A stretch of 64,000 bases of DNA from Eubacteriales bacterium (GTDB lineage: Bacteria > Bacillota > Clostridia > Lachnospirales > Lachnospiraceae). The stretch covers positions 17,884 through 81,883 of the forward strand of contig JAUNGM010000020.1 in NCBI GenBank assembly GCA_030524545.1, given 5' to 3'. The translations under genes and the position numbers were made by a program. Of the stretch, positions 9,329-30,103 are shown piece by piece (within the stretch, counting starts at the first letter, position 1; every line of letters starts with the position of its first letter). The notes beneath the pieces were generated by a model, which was not told the origin of the DNA, did no database searches, and saw nothing but the letters and a program-made list of their open reading frames with translations.

Positions 9329-12300
9329 GTGTACCAGAAAGTAGACACGAATCTGAATTTCGTTGACCGCGAAAAAAAAGTCGAAGAATTCTGGAAAGAA
9401 AACCACATCTTCGAGAAGAGCATGGATTCACGCAAAGAAGGCGAAACCTATACCTTCTATGACGGACCGCCGACAGCCAACGGAAAACCCCATATCGGCC
9501 ATGTACTGACCCGTGTTATCAAAGATATGATTCCGAGATACCGTACCATGAAAGGCAATATGGTGCCGCGTAAAGCAGGATGGGATACCCACGGCCTTCC
9601 GGTAGAACTGGAAGTAGAAAAGAAGCTGGGCCTTGACGGCAAGGAACAGATTGAAGAATATGGAATGGAACCGTTCATTCAGCAGTGTAAGGAAAGCGTC
9701 TGGAAATATAAGGGAATGTGGGAGGATTTCTCCTCAACCGTAGGTTTCTGGGCAGATATGGAACATCCGTATGTTACCTATGAGGATGACTATATTGAAT
9801 CCGAATGGTGGGCATTAAAGGAAATCTGGAACAAGAAGCTTCTGTACAAGGGCTTCAAGATCGTGCCTTACTGTCCGCGCTGCGGAACTCCGCTTTCCGC
9901 CCAGGAGGTTTCCCAGGGTTACAAAACAGTAAAAGAGCGTTCCGCGATCGTCCGCTTTAAAGTAATCGGCGAGGATGCATATTTTCTTGCATGGACCACA
10001 ACCCCGTGGACACTTCCGTCCAACGTGGCACTTTGTGTAAACCCGGATGAAACCTACTGCAAAGTAAAGGCTGCTGACGGATATACCTATTATATGGCAG
10101 AAGCCCTTCTTGACAAGGTTCTTGGCAAGCTTGCACAGGAAGATGCCCCGGCATATGAAGTTCTGGAAACTTATAAAGGAACCGATCTGGAATATAAAGA
10201 ATATGAGCCGCTGTTTGCATGCACCGGAGAGGCTGCTGCAAAACAGAGAAAGAAAGGCCATTTCGTAACCTGCGACAATTATGTTACCATGAGCGACGGT
10301 ACCGGTATTGTTCATATCGCACCTGCATTCGGTGAAGATGACAGCCGTGTAGGCCGTGAATACAATCTGCCGTTTGTACAGTTCGTAGACGGACAGGGGA
10401 ATATGACTGCAGAAACACCGTACGCAGGCGTATTTGTAAAGAAAGCAGACCCGATGGTTCTGGTTGACCTGGATAAAGAGGGCAAGCTTTTTGACGCACC
10501 GAAATTTGAACATGATTATCCGCACTGCTGGAGATGCGATACTCCGCTGATCTACTATGCACGGGAATCCTGGTTCATTAAGATGACTGCTGTAAAAGAA
10601 GACCTGATCCGCAACAACAACACGATCAACTGGATTCCGGAAAGCATCGGCAAGGGCCGTTTCGGAGACTGGCTGGAGAACGTCCAGGACTGGGGCATCA
10701 GCCGTAACCGTTACTGGGGTACTCCGCTGAACATCTGGGAATGTGAATGCGGATGCATGCATTCCATCGGAAGCCGTCAGGAGCTGTTCGAGATGAGCGG
10801 CAATGAAAAGGCGAAGACCGTAGAGCTTCACCGTCCGTATATTGATGAGATCACCATCAAATGTCCGGAATGCGGCAAGGATATGCACCGTGTACCGGAA
10901 GTTATCGACTGCTGGTTTGACTCCGGGGCTATGCCTTTTGCACAGCATCATTATCCATTTGAAAATAAAGATTTATTTGAAAAGCAGTTCCCTGCAGACT
11001 TCATCTCCGAGGCTGTAGACCAGACAAGAGGATGGTTCTACTCCCTGTTGGCAGAGTCCACTCTGCTCTTTAACAAAGCTCCGTACAAGAACGTCATCGT
11101 TCTGGGACATGTGCAGGATGAAAACGGCCAGAAGATGAGCAAGTCCAAGGGAAATGCCGTAGATCCGTTTGAAGCACTGGAAAAATACGGTGCTGATGCG
11201 ATCCGCTGGTATTTCTACATCAACAGTGCTCCGTGGCTGCCAAATCGCTTCCATGGCAAGGCTGTTGTGGAAGGACAGCGCAAATTTATGAGTACATTGT
11301 GGAATACTTACGCGTTTTTTGTGCTTTATGCCAATATTGACAACTTTGACGCAACAAAATATACTTTAGACTATGACAAACTTCCGGTTATGGACAAATG
11401 GCTTCTCAGCAAGCTGAATTCCGTAGTGAAGGCTGTGGATGACAACCTTGCCAACTACCGCATTCCGGAAAGTGCAAGAGCACTTCAGGAATTTGTAGAT
11501 GAAATGAGCAACTGGTATGTCAGAAGAAGCCGTGAGCGTTTCTGGGCCAAAGGAATGGAGCAGGATAAGATCAATGCGTATATGACACTGTATACCGCAC
11601 TGGTTACCATCGCCAAGGCAGCAGCTCCGATGATCCCGTTCATGACAGAGGATATCTACCAGAATCTTGTAAGAAGCATTGATAAAGCTGCTCCTGAGAG
11701 CATCCATCTCTGCGACTTCCCTGAAGTAAAGGAAGAATGGATCAACAAGGAGCTGGAAGCTGACATGGAAGAACTTTTGAAGATCGTTGTTCTCGGACGT
11801 GCAGCCAGAAATACGGCCAACATTAAGAACCGCCAGCCGATCGGAACCATGTTTGTCAAAGCTGATAAGGAAATGGACAGCTTCTTTACCGATATCATTG
11901 CAGACGAGCTGAATGTAAAAGAAGTGAAATTTGCAAATGATGTGGAATCCTTTATTTCCTACAGCTTTAAGCCGCAGCTTCGGACAGTGGGACCGAAATA
12001 CGGCAAATTGCTGGGCGGCATCCGTCAGGCCCTTACAGACATTGACGGAAGCAAGGCTATGCAGGAACTGAAATCCGCGGGTGTCCTTACCCTGGATATA
12101 AATGGCAATAAAGTGGAGCTGTCTGAGGAAGATCTGCTGATCGAGACCGCACAGACAGAAGGCTATGTAACTGAGACGGAAGGAGAAGTTTCCGTTGTCC
12201 TGGATACGAACCTGACTCCGGAACTGATCGAAGAGGGCTTTGTCCGCGAGATCATCAGCAAAGTGCAGACCATGAGAAAAGAGGCCGGCTTTGAAGTGAT

Positions 12301-26930: not shown

Positions 26931-27536
26931 ATGACATATTTATGGAGCGGAATGATTTTGATCGGAATAGTATACGGTGCTCTGACAGGGAACCTGAAGG
27001 AAGTGACGGAGGCAGCGGTTTCTTCTTCAAAGGAAGCGGTGAATCTGTGTATTGCAATGGCGGGAATCACAGCTTTGTGGACGGGAATTATGAAAATAGC
27101 AGAAAATGCAGGGCTGGTGGGGCAGCTTTCCAAAGGCCTCCGGCCGCTTCTGCGGCTTTTGTTTCCCAGGCTGCCTGTGGAGTCCGGAGCGTGCAGATAT
27201 ATCTCCCTGAATTTTTTGTCGAATTTCCTGGGGTTGGGATGGGCGGCGACGCCGGCAGGGCTGAAGGCTATGGAAAAATTAAGTGAATTGAATAAGGAGA
27301 ATTGCAAAAAATACGGAAGTTCGCCGTCGGCGGCAAGTAATGAGATGTGTACGTTTTTGATCTTGAATATCTCGTCACTGCAGTTGATTCCGGTAAATAT
27401 TATTGCTTACAGGAGCCAGTATGGGAGCGTGAATCCTGCGGCAATCGTGGGCCCGGGGATTTTGGCGACGGCGGTAAGTACGGGGGTGGCGGTTATCTTT
27501 TGTAAGGTGATGGATCGAAGAAGGCGGAGAGTGTGA
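26931..27536 (+). CDS. spmA: Spore maturation protein A (nucleoside-recognition/Gate domain)
   Basis: About 200-aa membrane protein with the characteristic MTYLWSGMILIG...ALWTGIMKIAE N-terminus. An spmB homolog lies downstream. Confidence 0.85.
   Translation: MTYLWSGMILIGIVYGALTGNLKEVTEAAVSSSKEAVNLCIAMAGITALWTGIMKIAENAGLVGQLSKGLRPLLRLLFPRLPVESGACRYISLNFLSNFLGLGWAATPAGLKAMEKLSELNKENCKKYGSSPSAASNEMCTFLILNISSLQLIPVNIIAYRSQYGSVNPAAIVGPGILATAVSTGVAVIFCKVMDRRRRRV
27428..27468 (+). repeat. Left copy of a 41-bp imperfect direct repeat (inside the spmA 3' coding region)
   Basis: 33/41 identical to 29388-29428 by hand alignment. Confidence 0.75.
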
Positions 27537-27551
27537 GTGCTCTCCGCTTTT
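27524..27551 (+). terminator. Terminator hairpin overlapping the spmA stop codon
   Basis: GCGGAGAG / CTCTCCGC 8-bp stem, 8-nt loop, TTTT. Confidence 0.7.
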
Positions 27552-27615
27552 GAGTTATTTCTAGTGCAAACAATTAAAAATTTTTAAGGAAATGGGTATC
27601 ATTTTACAAGATATA

Positions 27616-27624
27616 TGCTATAAT
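27616..27624 (+). promoter_or_regulatory. Extended -10 promoter element (TGcTATAAT) of the islet operon
   Basis: Read directly. The AAGGGAGG RBS follows at 27634-27641. Confidence 0.5.
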
Positions 27625-27649
27625 GATAATGAAAAGGGAGGTGCTTAGT

Positions 27650-28006
27650 ATGCTGTATATTGGTAAAGCGATGCAGGATAGAATGAATATATTAGGCTTA
27701 ACTGCAGATGAAGTGGCAGAAAAGGCCTTTGTGGAAAAAGAAACTATTGATGCAATTATACAGAACAAAATTGCGCTGGAAGAAATTGATGAATTTGATA
27801 TGTCTTTAATTTGCAGTATTTTACACTGTAAACCAGAATATTTTGCGGATGCAAATATGAAAGAAAAAGATTTGTTGATGGCATCTATGAATAGAGGTTT
27901 AGATAATAAAAAATCAATGGAAGTAAAAGCGAGGATTCAAGATTTTATGACTGATTTTGCTTTTATAAAGGATATTTTATTAGAGATGGGAGAGGTATAC
28001 TCATGA
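27650..28006 (+). CDS. Small XRE-like helix-turn-helix protein (118 aa), putative repressor/antitoxin
   Basis: N-terminal IGKAMQDRMNILGLTADEVAEKAFVEKETIDAIIQNK resembles the HTH_3/XRE pattern. ATG at 27650 lies 8 nt after GGAGG. The stop overlaps the next start (ATGA). Confidence 0.65.
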   Translation: MLYIGKAMQDRMNILGLTADEVAEKAFVEKETIDAIIQNKIALEEIDEFDMSLICSILHCKPEYFADANMKEKDLLMASMNRGLDNKKSMEVKARIQDFMTDFAFIKDILLEMGEVYS

Positions 28007-28761
28007 CATGTAATGTTATAGAGGCTGTAAATAAGGCCAGGGATGTCTTTGGGATAAAAGATTTCCCTGGCAATTTTTTTGCATTGCTTGAAAAACAAAA
28101 CTATACGGAAAAATATAGATTATTACTATTTAAAGAGGATATAGATAAATTATCAGGATTTATTGGGTATGGTGATAATGAAATATGCGTTATATGCATA
28201 AATTATCAAAGACCAATAGGGCATCAAAATTTTACACTTGCGCATGAACTGGGACATTGGTTTATGCATAAAGGGCAGAACATTTCAGATGATGATAAAA
28301 CATGTTCATATTCTACTGAAAAAATAGAACAGGAAGCCAATGATTTTGCGGCGGAATTGCTTTATCCGGAGAGACTTTTTAAGGAGGATTTTTCTGACAT
28401 AATTGGAAAAGATTTATTGCGGCCTGATTCAAGAAAAGCATTGGCAATTTATATTGATAAGCTATGCCATAAGTATTGTCTCAGTTTTGATATGGTATTC
28501 AGAAAAATACTATACAAAAACAGGCAAATAAAACAGTATAGTATAGTAAAAAGAGAAATAGAAAAAGCACTTGGATGTAAAATATCCGAATATTTTGAAA
28601 AGGATTTTTATGTGCCTAATGAAGAGCTGCCAGAATACCAACAGTTGAGGACACCTTATATTGACTTGGAAAAAAAGGTTGATAGGTTAGTAGCATTGGG
28701 GAAGATCGGTGAAGCCACAGCCGAAGCCATAAAATATAGAAACGGAATACAAATTAATTAA
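28003..28761 (+). CDS. ImmA/IrrE-family (COG2856, Peptidase_M78) zinc metallopeptidase
   Basis: HEXXH = HELGH (res. 81-85), followed by the conserved EQEANDFAAELLYP segment. 252 aa. Confidence 0.85.
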   Translation: MTCNVIEAVNKARDVFGIKDFPGNFFALLEKQNYTEKYRLLLFKEDIDKLSGFIGYGDNEICVICINYQRPIGHQNFTLAHELGHWFMHKGQNISDDDKTCSYSTEKIEQEANDFAAELLYPERLFKEDFSDIIGKDLLRPDSRKALAIYIDKLCHKYCLSFDMVFRKILYKNRQIKQYSIVKREIEKALGCKISEYFEKDFYVPNEELPEYQQLRTPYIDLEKKVDRLVALGKIGEATAEAIKYRNGIQIN

Positions 28762-29345
28762 TGTATTATCTTGTAGATACAAATATATTTCTTCATGTTA
28801 TTGGTTCTAATATATATGGTGTGGCTGATTTATGCAAAAAGAACAATAACGATATTACAATTACACAGACAATCTTAAATGAATTAGATCCGGGCTATTA
28901 CAGGGAAAATGAAGATGCTTCTAGTAAAGAAGTATATACATCGGTAAACAATTTGGTATTAGGAACGTGGGGGATTAAAGCTATCCAGATAATTCGCCTA
29001 AGCGATATTGAAGGGGCAAAAGAAGAGCTAAAAAAGATTAGAGAAAGATTCTATGGCTGGATGCGGAATCCCCAATATTTACAAAAATTAATACAAGAGG
29101 GAAAAATTTCTAGAGATGATATAAAGAAGCCCAGTTTCAGAAACAAAGATTTGGGTGAGTGTGAATTATTGGCAATTGCAAAAGCAGCTGTGGGTCAATA
29201 CTGGATTGTTACAAATGATAGGGGAAGGGTTTTTCAGCATCCGGATCAAAATATATTTGATACATATGCGAATGATCCAAATGTTACTATTATTACGGGT
29301 AACGAATGGCTTAAAATAATTGGTTTTAATGAAGAAAATGAATAA
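28761..29345 (+). CDS. PIN-like domain nuclease (DUF4411-like), putative toxin/effector
   Basis: MYYLVDTNIF (D6), ILNELD (E41/D43), DLGECELLAIA (D130/E133), IVTNDRG (D153): an acidic tetrad pattern of PIN domains. Start overlaps the upstream stop (TAATG). Confidence 0.6.
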   Translation: MYYLVDTNIFLHVIGSNIYGVADLCKKNNNDITITQTILNELDPGYYRENEDASSKEVYTSVNNLVLGTWGIKAIQIIRLSDIEGAKEELKKIRERFYGWMRNPQYLQKLIQEGKISRDDIKKPSFRNKDLGECELLAIAKAAVGQYWIVTNDRGRVFQHPDQNIFDTYANDPNVTIITGNEWLKIIGFNEENE

Positions 29346-29387
29346 TAAAAGAAATACTTTTAGTCCTAACTTGACACCAGCTAACTT

Positions 29388-29428
29388 CGTGAATCCCACG
29401 GCGATCGTCGGGACGGGGATTCTGGCAA
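29388..29428 (+). repeat. Right copy of the 41-bp direct repeat; a ghost spmA 3' fragment (reads VNPTAIVGTGILAKKFEEGVVF*)
   Basis: Aligns with 27428-27468. Differences are mostly at third codon positions. Confidence 0.75.
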
Positions 29429-29515
29429 AAAAGTTTGAAGAGGGCGTTGTGTTCTAATGTTATTCTAATGTTGCTAAGCTAATATAGACTCATAATAAAC
29501 TGGAGGAATATCAAT

Positions 29516-30103
29516 ATGAGAAGAATGAATTTAGTGAAAAAAAGTATATTGGCAGCAGGTATGATGGGAATTCTGATAATATTGGGAGCCGGGACGGTAT
29601 TTGCTGCAGTTGATGCGCAGGAGGCAGAAGAGATTGCCCTTGCGGATGCTGATATCAAGGCAGATCAGGCAGACCGCCTGAGAACAGAAGCAGAGAGGGA
29701 AGATGGAGAGAATGTTTACGAAGTAACATTTACTGTGGATGGCGTTGAATATAAATACCTGATCAGGGAAGAAGACGGAACGATTCTGGAGTGGGAAATG
29801 GATGGCAGAGACATCGGAGATGCGGCAGCGGAAAAGAGCCTGAAGGACAGCTCAAAAGAGTCATCGGATGCTGACAAAGATTCAGCAGAGAATACGGATA
29901 CGGTGATCGGCCTGGAACGTGCTAAGGAGATTGCTCTTTCAGACGCAGGTCTGGATTTGGCTGATGTGAGTTTTTCCAAGATTAAGTTTGGAAAAGAGGA
30001 CAGGGAAGTGGTTTATGAAGTAGAGTTTTATCAGGCTCGGGATGAGTTTGAGTATATAATTGAAGCCTACAGCGGAGAGATACTCAAGATGGAAAGGGAT
30101 TAG
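29516..30103 (+). CDS. PepSY-domain protein (two PepSY repeats), N-terminal signal/anchor
   Basis: Two copies of the ..A..IAL.DAG......F.K...........YEVEF pattern. Signal-like N-terminus. Confidence 0.75.
   Translation: MRRMNLVKKSILAAGMMGILIILGAGTVFAAVDAQEAEEIALADADIKADQADRLRTEAEREDGENVYEVTFTVDGVEYKYLIREEDGTILEWEMDGRDIGDAAAEKSLKDSSKESSDADKDSAENTDTVIGLERAKEIALSDAGLDLADVSFSKIKFGKEDREVVYEVEFYQARDEFEYIIEAYSGEILKMERD

Follow-up and report, generated by a model that had tools for sequence, protein, structure and literature searches.

Three-component systems of an Xre regulator, a COG2856 peptidase, and a PIN nuclease were predicted in 2009 (PMC2701414, Makarova) and 2017 (PMC5499597, Matelska). 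For this Xre+COG2856/DUF955+PIN class, stand-alone HTH components were mentioned and one cluster, PIN_26, was described as Firmicutes specific (PMC2701414; PMC5499597). Fused versions have been characterized. In Mycobacterium tuberculosis VapBC52 (Rv2515c/Rv2514c; Singh et al., NAR 2026), the peptidase is switched on by single-stranded DNA (ssDNA) and removes the HTH, which releases the PIN tRNase; protection against phage was observed only when the toxin was overexpressed by itself and not with the full pair (PMC13273310). RosmerTA, formed by RmrT and RmrA, acts in phage defense, and its validated toxins are of other kinds, e.g., membrane depolarizing (10.1101/2022.05.11.491447; PMC10440598); the ImmA node has also been associated with PIN-like domains (PMC10440598). 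In CapH/CapP and DdrO/IrrE, HTH repressor and M78 peptidase are two distinct polypeptides, the cut falls between the HTH and the C-terminal dimerization helix, and CapP cleaves CapH upon ssDNA binding (10.64898/2026.05.16.725639). An XRE repressor is likewise cleaved by an M78 peptidase in ImmR/ImmA of ICEBs1 and in phage repressor/anti-repressor pairs, which are carried on mobile DNA, and the three-gene defense system PD-lambda-2 includes an Xre-peptidase protein (Vassallo 2022, PMC9519451).

Here, we describe a Lachnospiraceae cassette that is a split, three-protein version of this known protease-triggered toxin-antitoxin/anti-phage class and not a new kind of system. A first, sequence-only reading of the DNA could name no characterized system with exactly such a trio; given the predictions and fused systems cited above, this overstated its novelty. 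The class predicted by Makarova and Matelska has the identical domain trio and the same logic, in which activation of the PIN toxin follows from proteolysis of the Xre repressor/antitoxin; these classes are in silico, and ORF3 may belong to one of their unnamed clusters (PIN_14, PIN_20, and PIN_26).

Three coupled genes behind one conserved promoter

The cassette lies at positions 27552 to 29387 of the window, i.e., the whole 64,000-nucleotide stretch of DNA analyzed here. A sequence check bore out three coupled same-strand ORFs (Table 1), joined by an ATGA overlap at 28003-28006 (ORF1/ORF2) and a TAATG overlap at 28759-28763 (ORF2/ORF3). The extended -10 element and the strong ribosome-binding site proposed in the sequence-only reading are also present. 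Of 23 upstream regions taken from relatives, distant ones included, 18 show the layout GT(A/G)TCA-N17-TATAAT with TGn, and an (A/G)GGAGG ribosome-binding site is kept in all relatives. The -35 and -10 hexamers form an imperfect inverted repeat (TATCA/TGATA), which may be the operator of ORF1; it is treated only as a candidate because its right arm is the -10 box and the spacing varies among lineages. An alternative ORF1 start at 27623 was unsupported, with relatives all beginning at M(L/Q)YIG, which matches 27650.

The GC content of the cassette is 0.322, approximately 5 standard deviations below the window mean of 0.452 (sd, 0.026; same-size windows), making it the lowest-GC stretch in the whole window. 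The low GC reported earlier thus stood, but the flanks, put at 55 to 62%, are really at 0.48 to 0.50 in the adjacent spmA and spmB. Directly upstream, a terminator scan placed a terminator-like hairpin that closes the spore-maturation gene spmA. No Rfam structured RNA family and no tRNA were found in the window.

Table 1. Features of the cassette and its borders (positions in the window)
Feature	Positions	Strand	Description
Copy of spmA 3' end with terminator hairpin (27520-27551)	27331..27551	+	Completes the spmA frame; GC 0.50; identity to lineage L022 starts at 27331
Cassette promoter	27596..27624	+	-35-like GTATCA (27596-27601), 17-nt spacer, extended -10 TGcTATAAT (27616-27624)
Ribosome-binding site AAGGGAGGTG	27634..27643	+	6 nt 5' of the ORF1 ATG
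ORF1	27650..28006	+	118 aa; divergent XRE-type HTH; predicted repressor/antitoxin and protease substrate
ORF2	28003..28761	+	252 aa; ImmA/IrrE/CapP-type M78 zinc peptidase (H81-E82-x-x-H85, E111)
ORF3	28761..29345	+	194 aa; PIN-fold nuclease with helical insertion at ~residues 86-127; predicted toxin/effector
Displaced original spmA 3' end	29388..29457	+	Decayed remnant; reads ..NPTAIVGTGILAKKFEEGVVF-stop

ORF1 has the predicted fold of an XRE-type DNA-binding protein

ORF1 is organized in an HTH (approximately residues 1 to 72), an invariant linker motif, DLL..(S/A)MNRG.D (residues 74 to 85), and a long C-terminal helix (residues 87 to 117), and its dN/dS is 0.10 to 0.27. The XRE-type HTH seen by eye was recovered by fold but not by profile. 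No Pfam HTH family matched ORF1 (E≤0.1), HTH_26 was sub-threshold in 11 of 31 relatives (best E, 0.0014), and sequence links to solved HTH proteins were marginal only. The AF2 model (pLDDT, 89.5), however, had SinR, 434 Cro, P22 c2, the CapH N-terminal domain (7t5u), DdrO, and ImmR as its top Foldseek matches. Against the DNA-binding domains of SinR, P22 c2, 434 Cro, CapH, and ImmR, target TM scores of 0.8 to 0.9 were obtained with a probability of 1.0, and superpositions on XRE domains gave an rmsd of 1.0 to 1.3 Å over approximately 63 residues. By fold alone, ORF1 is predicted to adopt the five-helix XRE architecture. The FR cleavage motif of CapH and VapB52 is absent from ORF1, and the invariant MNRG of the linker stands in its place.

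The M78 peptidase ORF2 ends in a family-specific region

ORF2 matched Pfam Peptidase_M78 (PF06114; E, 9.3e-17; 61.4 bits; cut-off, 22) and carries the HELGH and EQEAN motifs, as expected from its earlier assignment to COG2856/Peptidase_M78. Residues H81, E82, H85, E109, and E111 are invariant in 7 lineages, and the gene has a dN/dS of 0.09 to 0.12. Among the PADLOC models, ORF2 matched capP (4e-24), RmrA (9e-16, the best of 15 RmrA models), and, weakly, PD-Lambda-2_B (1e-5); the nearest solved sequences were CapP (7t5t) and IrrE.

The match to the capP model covers residues 9 to 131 of ORF2 and positions 9 to 123 of 242, and ends there. The approximately 110 residues that follow the peptidase domain are family specific: with the C-terminal 118 residues as the query, fragments of the same family and no other architectures were retrieved. 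Judged by its length, this part appears too short for the C-terminal HTH+GAF module with which CapP and IrrE bind ssDNA, and the residues found there in ORF2 are unrelated to it, although they might form a very compact sensor. Since only approximately 110 residues follow the peptidase and the capP match stops at 123 of 242, the trigger of ORF2 may differ from the ssDNA of CapP and IrrE. The zinc ligands of ORF2 are separated by an acidic loop with a cysteine, DDDKTC101. This cysteine, a possible switch of the CapP/VapB52 kind, has a counterpart between the zinc ligands of VapB52 (C229); it occurs in the window and in five other lineages (L022, L006, L007, L023, and L035) but is missing from most others.

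ORF1 and ORF2 map collinearly to positions 6 to 103 and 133 to 251, respectively, of the fused HTH-peptidase phage family phrog_2439 (367 positions), and ORF2 aligns to positions 130 to 307 of 384 of the RmrA antitoxin model; together, they look like a split RmrA/VapB52-type protein.

ORF3 belongs to a very small family with a predicted PIN fold

ORF3 could be linked to solved structures by fold comparison only, with no link found by sequence. Foldseek searches of the PDB with its AF2 model (pLDDT, 89.3) returned the VapC toxins 3zvk, 5ecw, and 6ifc at the top, followed by Nmd4, SMG6, and HARP (probability, ~1.0; E, 3e-4). D6, which lies in the N-terminal MYYLVDTN, and E41, D130, E133, E135, and D153 are invariant in 29 homologues. 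In the model, D6 follows strand 1, E41 lies within helix 2, D130 opens the helix behind strand 3, and D153 follows strand 4, an arrangement that fits the PIN pattern. ORF3 is therefore predicted to have a VapC-like PIN fold with a complete acidic tetrad, in agreement with the PIN-like layout first noted for it.

In Pfam, ORF3 falls below the PIN cut-offs (PIN_4, 18.1 bits versus 21.9; PIN_12, 17.7 versus 32), and PIN_4, PIN_12, and PIN_3 are sub-threshold in 19 to 21 of the 29 relatives. The likeness to DUF4411 suggested in the sequence-only reading was not upheld: PF14367 matched (E≤0.1) neither ORF3 nor any of 29 family members or 10 distant relatives, and ORF3 lies, by Pfam, outside both DUF4411 and COG2405. 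No PADLOC toxin model, RmrT included, matched ORF3 (E≤0.1). The family is very small, with 73 clusters at 50% identity among 1.84 billion proteins, and has no Pfam model.

The cassette is a split relative of described systems

The likeness to VapBC52 is one of the parts list only: an XRE-type HTH, an IrrE/CapP-like zinc peptidase, and a PIN toxin, with the antitoxin gene 5' of the toxin gene. VapB52 is one self-cutting 415-aa protein; in the cassette, HTH and peptidase reside on separate proteins of 118 and 252 aa, so that the cut would have to be made in trans. At approximately 150 aa, VapC52, a DUF4411 PIN protein, is shorter than ORF3 (194 aa) and its helical insertion sets ORF3 apart; VapB52 has an FR cleavage motif instead of the MNRG linker, and the hosts are Actinobacteria and not Lachnospiraceae.

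With RosmerTA, the cassette shares an M78/ImmA peptidase partner beside the toxin, a mobile way of life, and the matches of ORF2 to 15 RmrA models. RosmerTA has two genes, however, and RmrA is a single HTH-peptidase fusion, whereas the cassette HTH is separate and the RmrA match begins only at model position ~130. Since ORF1 and ORF3 match no PADLOC model, standard tools would not call the locus RosmerTA; more generally, only one of its three proteins reaches the threshold of a curated model, and current defense and toxin-antitoxin finders would therefore miss it. New models drawn up from the present alignments would fill a small gap for gut Lachnospiraceae.

CapH/CapP also keep repressor and peptidase apart, but they control a separate multigene immune operon, whereas the cargo here is one PIN nuclease in the same operon. 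ImmR/ImmA-type pairs run the excision/transfer or lytic genes of a complete element, in contrast to the cassette, which has no integrase, excisionase, phage, or conjugation genes. In PD-lambda-2, the fusion itself is toxic and is accompanied by a HigB-like toxin and a P4 antitoxin-like protein, with no PIN protein. The cassette does not overturn current understanding; it offers a natural split version of the RosmerTA/VapBC52 HTH-peptidase antitoxins, in which the licensing step (binding partners, cut site, and signal) should be easier to dissect because substrate, protease, and nuclease are separate proteins.

The trio is rare, patchy, and decays in a toxin-like pattern

The family is rare and patchy, with 22 loci across 185,579 species genomes, and the trio was found almost only in Lachnospiraceae. 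All 23 distinct loci in which ORF3 is intact show the order ORF1>ORF2>ORF3, down to approximately 55% identity, which answers the earlier question of whether the three genes co-occur. The start-stop overlap of ORF2 and ORF3 is kept in every lineage examined, and the dN/dS values of all three genes (0.09 to 0.31) indicate purifying selection. Two loci (L037 and L038) have lesions in ORF3 only, three others (L030, L041, and L043) have lost ORF2 and ORF3 together while keeping ORF1, and no locus was found with an intact ORF3 beside a broken ORF1 or ORF2. This toxin-like pattern of decay rests on five loci, some of them in MAGs, where frameshifts may be assembly errors. As in type II toxin-antitoxin systems, the genes are adjacent and coupled, and in these loci the intact putative toxin never occurs without its partners.

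Proposed working and alternative explanations

Taken together, the cassette is probably a toxin-antitoxin-like module of three proteins, self-contained and horizontally mobile, that belongs to the Xre+COG2856/M78 peptidase+PIN class and works by protease licensing. What was computed here is domain identity and conservation, and every step of the mechanism is drawn from characterized relatives. ORF1 would dimerize through its C-terminal helix, bind the cassette promoter, and keep the operon low, and it may also help to keep the ORF3 nuclease inactive. ORF2 would be a latent zinc peptidase whose family-specific C-terminal part may contact the nuclease. A danger signal would activate ORF2; the behavior of CapP, IrrE, and VapB52 makes ssDNA, arising through DNA damage or phage replication, the most likely one. 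ORF2 would then cleave ORF1 in the invariant linker, around SMNRG (residues 79 to 83). Loss of ORF1 would de-repress the operon and/or free ORF3, a VapC-like enzyme that would cut RNA, probably tRNA or rRNA, and the growth of the stressed or infected cell would stop. By the same logic, the module would be addictive, aiding its persistence while it moves between genomes. In favor of this working are the domain identities, the constant gene order, the toxin-like decay, the conserved promoter with its inverted repeat, the defense-type or mobile surroundings of part of the loci, and the precedents cited above. Against it stand the MNRG in place of FR in ORF1, the short C-terminal part of ORF2, the restricted occurrence of the loop cysteine, the absence of toxin-model matches for ORF3, the many housekeeping contexts, and the phage results with the full VapBC52 pair. 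The protease-licensing mechanism put forward in the sequence-only reading, which is the one demonstrated for VapBC52, is plausible, though not new in principle; the computational checks named in that reading came out in its favor, the likeness to DUF4411 excepted.

The same molecular device might instead have a purely selfish role, as an addiction module that stabilizes itself and neighboring DNA with no anti-phage benefit, a possibility to which we give some weight while holding it unlikely. The contexts of the trio are unrelated (defense islands, a prophage edge, a mobilizable element, and housekeeping loci), and a defense role is not implied by context alone because many loci lie among housekeeping genes. 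Rarity, patchiness, recent lateral movement, and the lack of a PADLOC system call for the cassette also fit a selfish role. Against it, fused relatives defend against phages (PMC10440598; 10.1101/2022.05.11.491447), and some loci lie in clear defense neighborhoods, at the prophage edge, or in the mobilizable element. Defense genes, whose proximity had been named earlier as a point to check, adjoin the trio in a sizeable minority of loci; such neighbors include a 943-aa AAA_15/AAA_21 protein with SUKH immunity genes, BrxC/BrxD, a WYL regulator, and matches to DpdF, SduA, and PDC models.

Another explanation, slightly less likely, is a pure transcriptional switch of the CapH/CapP type, in which ORF3 is an inducible effector and there is no protein antitoxin, no toxin-antitoxin complex, and no addiction. 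CapP provides both the best profile model and the best structure for ORF2, the ORF1 fold matches the CapH N-terminal domain, and one conserved promoter with an inverted repeat serves all three genes. Nevertheless, regulators and effector share one operon, so that de-repression would raise repressor and protease too, the invariant ORF2/ORF3 overlap suggests coupled synthesis, ORF2 seems too short for a GAF domain, and no locus keeps ORF3 without ORF1 and ORF2. The switch, improbable as we judge it, would depart from the licensed toxin-antitoxin module in the neutralization step alone.

It is considerably less probable that a prophage or integrative element decayed and left its ImmR/ImmA-type immunity switch behind as a relic, the PIN gene being a passenger. 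M78+HTH pairs are a typical feature of temperate phages and ICEs (PMC2701414), ORF2 matches the phage families phrog_2439 and phrog_87, one relative (L014) has a phage lysis module on one side and an integrase on the other, and a duplicated target-gene end flanks the cassette, as with integrated elements. However, no relatives of ORF3 were found among 2.9 million IMG/VR contigs, 50,697 GenBank phages, and 72,556 plasmids (PLSDB). No phage, integrase, or conjugation gene lies within approximately 8 kb of the cassette in the window; its neighbors there are an ABC transporter, a histidine kinase, a Na/Pi transporter, SpmA, a PepSY protein, SpmB, an acyltransferase, SipL, a GHMP kinase, and GerA. 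The three genes are co-directional behind one promoter and not in a divergent repressor/cro arrangement, and the intact trio, under purifying selection, moves as a unit of 1.7 to 2.2 kb. The integrase-free module of the sequence-only reading is confirmed over this distance, and, with such housekeeping/sporulation neighbors and no relatives in these phage and plasmid collections, the cassette is not the ordinary prophage immunity region that it had named as an alternative.

Finally, it is least probable that the peptidase is the toxic component, ORF1 its antitoxin (the "Xre-COG2856" family), and the PIN protein an accessory: COG2856 is listed as a predicted toxin paired with Xre (PMC2701414), and the Xre-peptidase fusion of PD-lambda-2 is toxic alone and rescued by another component (PMC9519451), but RmrA, an HTH-peptidase, acts as an antitoxin and is not deletable (10.1101/2022.05.11.491447), VapB52 neutralizes a PIN toxin (PMC13273310), the PIN tetrad of ORF3 is complete, invariant, and under purifying selection, and decayed loci never lose ORF2 while ORF3 is intact.

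The cassette appears to have moved between genome backgrounds

Near-identical copies of the cassette occur in unalignable genome backgrounds. The cassette and its copy in lineage L022 are 94% identical from position 27331 on; neither the remainder of spmA nor the DNA upstream of it can be aligned. Together with the low GC, this provides evidence that the cassette was horizontally acquired and has recently moved laterally, in line with the foreign, self-contained unit first described. An empty spmA site was sought: exact look-ups of the PepSY and SpmB proteins gave one contig, identical to the window, and none was found by a metagenome DNA pattern scan or a PepSY-based metagenome scan.

As a more specific and tentative proposal, the cassette might be a recombinase-free, homology-targeted mobile unit that carries a target-gene 3' end and terminator (here restoring spmA), loops out, and reintegrates by homologous recombination, delivering a three-polypeptide "trans" protease-licensed PIN toxin that answers a signal different from the ssDNA that CapP and IrrE sense through GAF; as a whole, this is possible but unlikely. 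The apparent recombinase-free spread of a 1.7- to 2.2-kb defense-type cassette that replaces a target-gene end is a tidy case for how small immune modules move among gut commensals.

The 186-nt repeat of L018 had no Rfam match. In the window, the remnant at 29388..29457 forms an imperfect direct repeat with 27428-27466 (39 nt, 82% identity, spacing of 1960 nt), and longer equivalents were seen in L022 (147 nt) and L007 (225 nt, 92%). No recombinase is encoded in the cassette; even so, a duplicate 3' end of the upstream gene moves along with it, and direct repeats flank it in two lineages.

The cassette behind spmA and its conservation

The three-gene cassette behind spmA is a real feature, and its earlier interpretation, as a foreign AT-rich module in which a peptidase licenses a toxin, was essentially correct. 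The three coupled plus-strand genes proposed by the sequence-only reading were found in the sequence at the coordinates listed below, with an ATGA overlap between ORF1 and ORF2 and a TAATG overlap between ORF2 and ORF3. Also present ahead of ORF1 were the cassette's own extended -10, as had been claimed, and a strong RBS, AAGGGAGGTG, located 6 nt upstream of the ATG. With a GC content of 0.322, positions 27552-29387 are the GC minimum across the whole 64 kb (window mean of 0.452, sd 0.026, in equal-sized windows). The AT-richness noted earlier therefore stands, but the 55-62% given for the flanks was too high, spmA and spmB lying at 0.48-0.50. Up to about 8 kb on either side, all neighbors are ordinary housekeeping or sporulation genes, encoding an ABC sugar transporter, a histidine kinase, a Na/Pi transporter, SpmA, a PepSY protein, SpmB, an acyltransferase, SipL, a GHMP kinase, and GerA.

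Coordinates of the cassette, its flanking repeats, and related features
Feature	Locus	Positions	Remarks
Terminator-like hairpin	window	27520-27551	end of spmA; terminator scan
Cassette promoter, -35-like	window	27596-27601	GTATCA; 17-nt spacer
Cassette promoter, extended -10	window	27616-27624	TGcTATAAT
ORF1	window	27650-28006	+ strand; 118 aa
ORF2	window	28003-28761	+ strand; 252 aa
ORF2 loop DDDKTC	window	28288-28305	residues 96-101
ORF3	window	28761-29345	+ strand; 194 aa
Upstream spmA 3'-end copy	window	27331-27551	travels with cassette, keeping spmA intact
	L022	8570-8790
	L007	6522-6746
Downstream spmA-end copy	window	29388-29457	displaced, decaying original
	L022	10620-10762
	L007	8710-8934
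Unit bounded by 186-nt repeat	L017	6509-8738
	L018	6509-8738
Second 186-nt repeat copy	L018	8707-8892
Decayed loci, ORF2 and ORF3 deleted together	L030	2204-3119	ORF1 intact
	L041	9357-10351	ORF1 intact
	L043	194-1080	ORF1 intact
Decayed loci, lesions in ORF3 only	L037	9859-10513
	L038	6979-7527
460-aa neighbor gene	L001 group	10892-12274
532-aa neighbor ORF	L022	10915-12513
71-aa ORF	L007	8716-8931	in downstream spmA copy

A set of 43 related loci, drawn from metagenomes and 185,579 species genomes, was compared; the species genomes contributed only 22 loci, nearly all from Lachnospiraceae. Wherever the ORF3 homologue was intact, the adjacency and order of ORF1-ORF2-ORF3 were kept. This held for 23/23 distinct loci, the most divergent at about 55% identity, in favor of the sequence-only reading. 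The overlap of the ORF2 stop with the ORF3 start was retained in every lineage inspected, and dN/dS values of 0.09 to 0.31 across the three genes indicate purifying selection on all of them. Five of the 43 loci were decayed, and none of these five retained ORF3 without ORF1 and ORF2, a pattern that, in few loci (n = 5) and some of them on MAG contigs, is expected if ORF3 is harmful by itself.

The cassette promoter is conserved among relatives, and its two hexamers form an imperfect inverted repeat (TATCA/TGATA). We also compared the regions 5' of L001, L010, L014, L017, L023, L027 to L029, L031, L033, and L036 with window positions 27552-27649. In most relatives, a leader of about 60 to 70 nt separates the promoter from the RBS; it is absent from the window and from L022, a locus of a Eubacterium sp. 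MAG. A TGACA within the leader is conserved, and an additional TATA(A/C)T-like box there is possibly a second promoter or an operator.

Fold and family assignment of the three proteins

ORF1 had no Pfam HTH match, and the HTH_26 matches of its relatives were all below threshold. As seen in its AlphaFold model (pLDDT of 89.5, 31-sequence alignment), the protein has a five-helix XRE fold followed by a linker and one long helix. Foldseek matched this model to SinR, 434 Cro, P22 c2, and the controller protein C.BclI and paired it with M78-peptidase substrates, namely, the CapH N-terminal domain, DdrO, and ImmR. The XRE-type HTH proposed earlier is thus confirmed at the fold level. The linker, which joins the HTH to the C-terminal helix, contains an invariant DLL..(S/A)MNRG.D motif.

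ORF2 is a Peptidase_M78 (ImmA/IrrE) protein, as had been read from its sequence; the Pfam match (9e-17) is far over the cutoff, and HELGH is followed downstream by the EQEAN glutamates. Its top matches among defense models were capP (4e-24) and 15 models of RmrA, the antitoxin of RosmerTA, and the closest solved structures by sequence were CapP (7t5t) and IrrE. Between HExxH and the third zinc ligand lies a DDDKTC loop resembling the "cysteine switch loop" of CapP and VapB52, whose cysteine (C101) is restricted to the window clade, L023, and L035. On phrog_2439, a phage family of fused HTH-peptidases, ORF1 and ORF2 align next to each other, and the alignment of ORF2 to RmrA covers the portion after the RmrA HTH. 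Therefore, judged from these alignments, ORF1 and ORF2 look like a split form of the fused HTH-peptidase antitoxins.

PIN-model matches of ORF3 were below threshold, consistently so in 19 to 21 of 29 relatives. Nevertheless, the ORF3 model (pLDDT of 89.3) matched VapC toxins first and other PIN RNases next, and residues D6, E41, D130, and D153, sited at the PIN acidic positions, are invariant, in agreement with the PIN-like nuclease claimed earlier. The suggested likeness to DUF4411 did not hold, since no family member matched PF14367. The family is small and isolated, with 231 clusters at 90% identity, all unnamed, among 5.8 billion proteins, and a profile search recovered only 73 clusters among 1.84 billion representatives. 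Sequence and model together suggest that ORF3 is a PIN protein of an orphan family with a helical insertion.

Relation to known systems and a working model

A three-component system of Xre, COG2856, and PIN/RelE proteins was predicted by Makarova et al. (2009) (PMC2701414). Matelska et al. (2017) described several clusters of PIN-like proteins that are co-transcribed with HTH and DUF955 proteins (PMC5499597); stand-alone HTH components were among these, and one cluster was confined to Firmicutes. RosmerTA, a validated defense system, pairs variable toxins with an antitoxin of the HTH-peptidase type (10.1101/2022.05.11.491447; PMC10440598). [quoted passage not shown] CapH/CapP is the closest case with repressor and peptidase as separate proteins. 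The trio shares the overall logic of these systems but comprises three separate polypeptides, in contrast to VapBC52 and RosmerTA; its PIN protein comes from the orphan family, the FR motif of VapBC52 is absent, and it is almost confined to Lachnospiraceae. The GAF domain of CapP and IrrE is also absent, and ORF2 is probably too short for their HTH+GAF ssDNA sensor. PADLOC models would not call the locus. The principle is a long-standing prediction that was recently demonstrated for fused proteins, and here it is split into three proteins. The trio is an interesting but unsurprising representative of the protease-licensed toxin modules.

The analysis shows which parts are present, that they are conserved, and that they decay in a toxin-like pattern; from the characterized relatives we infer a working model. 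ORF1 would repress the conserved promoter, as its inverted-repeat hexamers might allow, and ORF2 would be a latent peptidase. Upon a danger signal, which may differ from the ssDNA sensed by CapP and IrrE, ORF2 would cleave ORF1 at the invariant linker, a place equivalent to that cleaved in CapH and DdrO, with the cut predicted near M80-N81-R82. The PIN nuclease would then be induced and/or released to cleave RNA. By analogy with the C-terminal domain of VapB52, ORF3 could be neutralized by the ORF1 helix or, as the invariant coupling of ORF2 to ORF3 hints, by the family-specific C terminus of ORF2. Biologically, the module might act against phages or be no more than addictive.

Genomic contexts and mobility

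The contexts of the cassette were mutually unrelated across loci. In one setting, a WYL regulator lay on one side of it and a RecQ-like helicase on the other, with StiP/ATP-grasp conflict genes nearby. It was also observed within a polysaccharide gene cluster; beside SUKH/Imm immunity genes and a 943-aa AAA_15/AAA_21 protein; flanked by a phage lysis module and by an integrase; and in a mobilizable element that carries relaxase and primase genes, as well as close to BrxC/BrxD and ParE. Among 120 neighbors of 16 further loci, there were strong matches to DpdF, SduA (Shedu), PsyrT, and several PDC candidates, together with three integrases and many transporters and two-component systems. No relative of the cassette was found in IMG/VR, GenBank phages, or PLSDB plasmids. 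The trio is therefore not a phage immunity region; it behaves as a small mobile module, often but not always in defense-type neighborhoods.

The L001 group has a neighboring 460-aa gene with Pfam AAA-ATPase_like and PDDEXK_9 domains, and the 532-aa neighbor in L022 is putatively of the same protein class; the two contexts are otherwise unrelated. PDDEXK_9 matched 2 of the 120 pooled neighbor proteins.

Window positions 27331-29381 and L022 are 94% identical, whereas the surrounding DNA is unalignable and the N-terminal parts of SpmA have diverged (about 61% identity across the entire protein). Since the shared unit starts inside spmA, the cassette carries its own copy of the last ~70 codons and the terminator. 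A second, decayed copy of the spmA end lies 3' of ORF3 and spans 39 nt of the window (29388-29426). Its counterpart in L022 is 147 nt long, and that in L007, another locus of the window clade, is 225 nt long with 92% identity. The duplicated spmA 3' end flanks the cassette in three different genome backgrounds. Positions 29346-29515, which separate the ORF3 stop from PepSY (29516-30103) and the spmB gene after it, contained no terminator-like site. As the spmA terminator is supplied by the cassette and none follows ORF3, expression of PepSY and spmB may have come to rely on read-through that starts at the cassette promoter.

In the L017/L018 lineage, a 2,230-bp unit comprising a 186-nt repeat, the promoter, and the trio occurs both at a chromosomal site and in a mobilizable element, with 99.9% identity between the two copies. 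It is bounded by direct copies of the 186-nt sequence, which is unrelated to spmA, folds stably in a terminator-like manner (z of -4.2; hairpin plus T-run), and, in L018, has no Rfam match. Flanking repeats were absent at 18 other loci checked, and an uninserted spmA site was not found by PepSY/SpmB protein look-ups or by metagenome scans based on DNA patterns and PepSY. A looped-out circle integrating by homologous recombination would account for the repeats and for the recurrence of spmA as the target. The cassette contains no recombinase gene; a recombinase acting in trans may move it, or it may be the relic of a larger element. This apparent integrase-free, target-restoring mobility is the aspect most deserving of follow-up.

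In L007, the downstream spmA copy has its own RBS-like AAAGGGGGTG and ATG, and its 71-aa ORF corresponds to the SpmA C terminus alone. Just 5' of this ORF, a TTGACT lies inside a TAACTTGAC motif, the window counterpart of which is TAACTTGACA, at the right end of the cassette (29366-29375).
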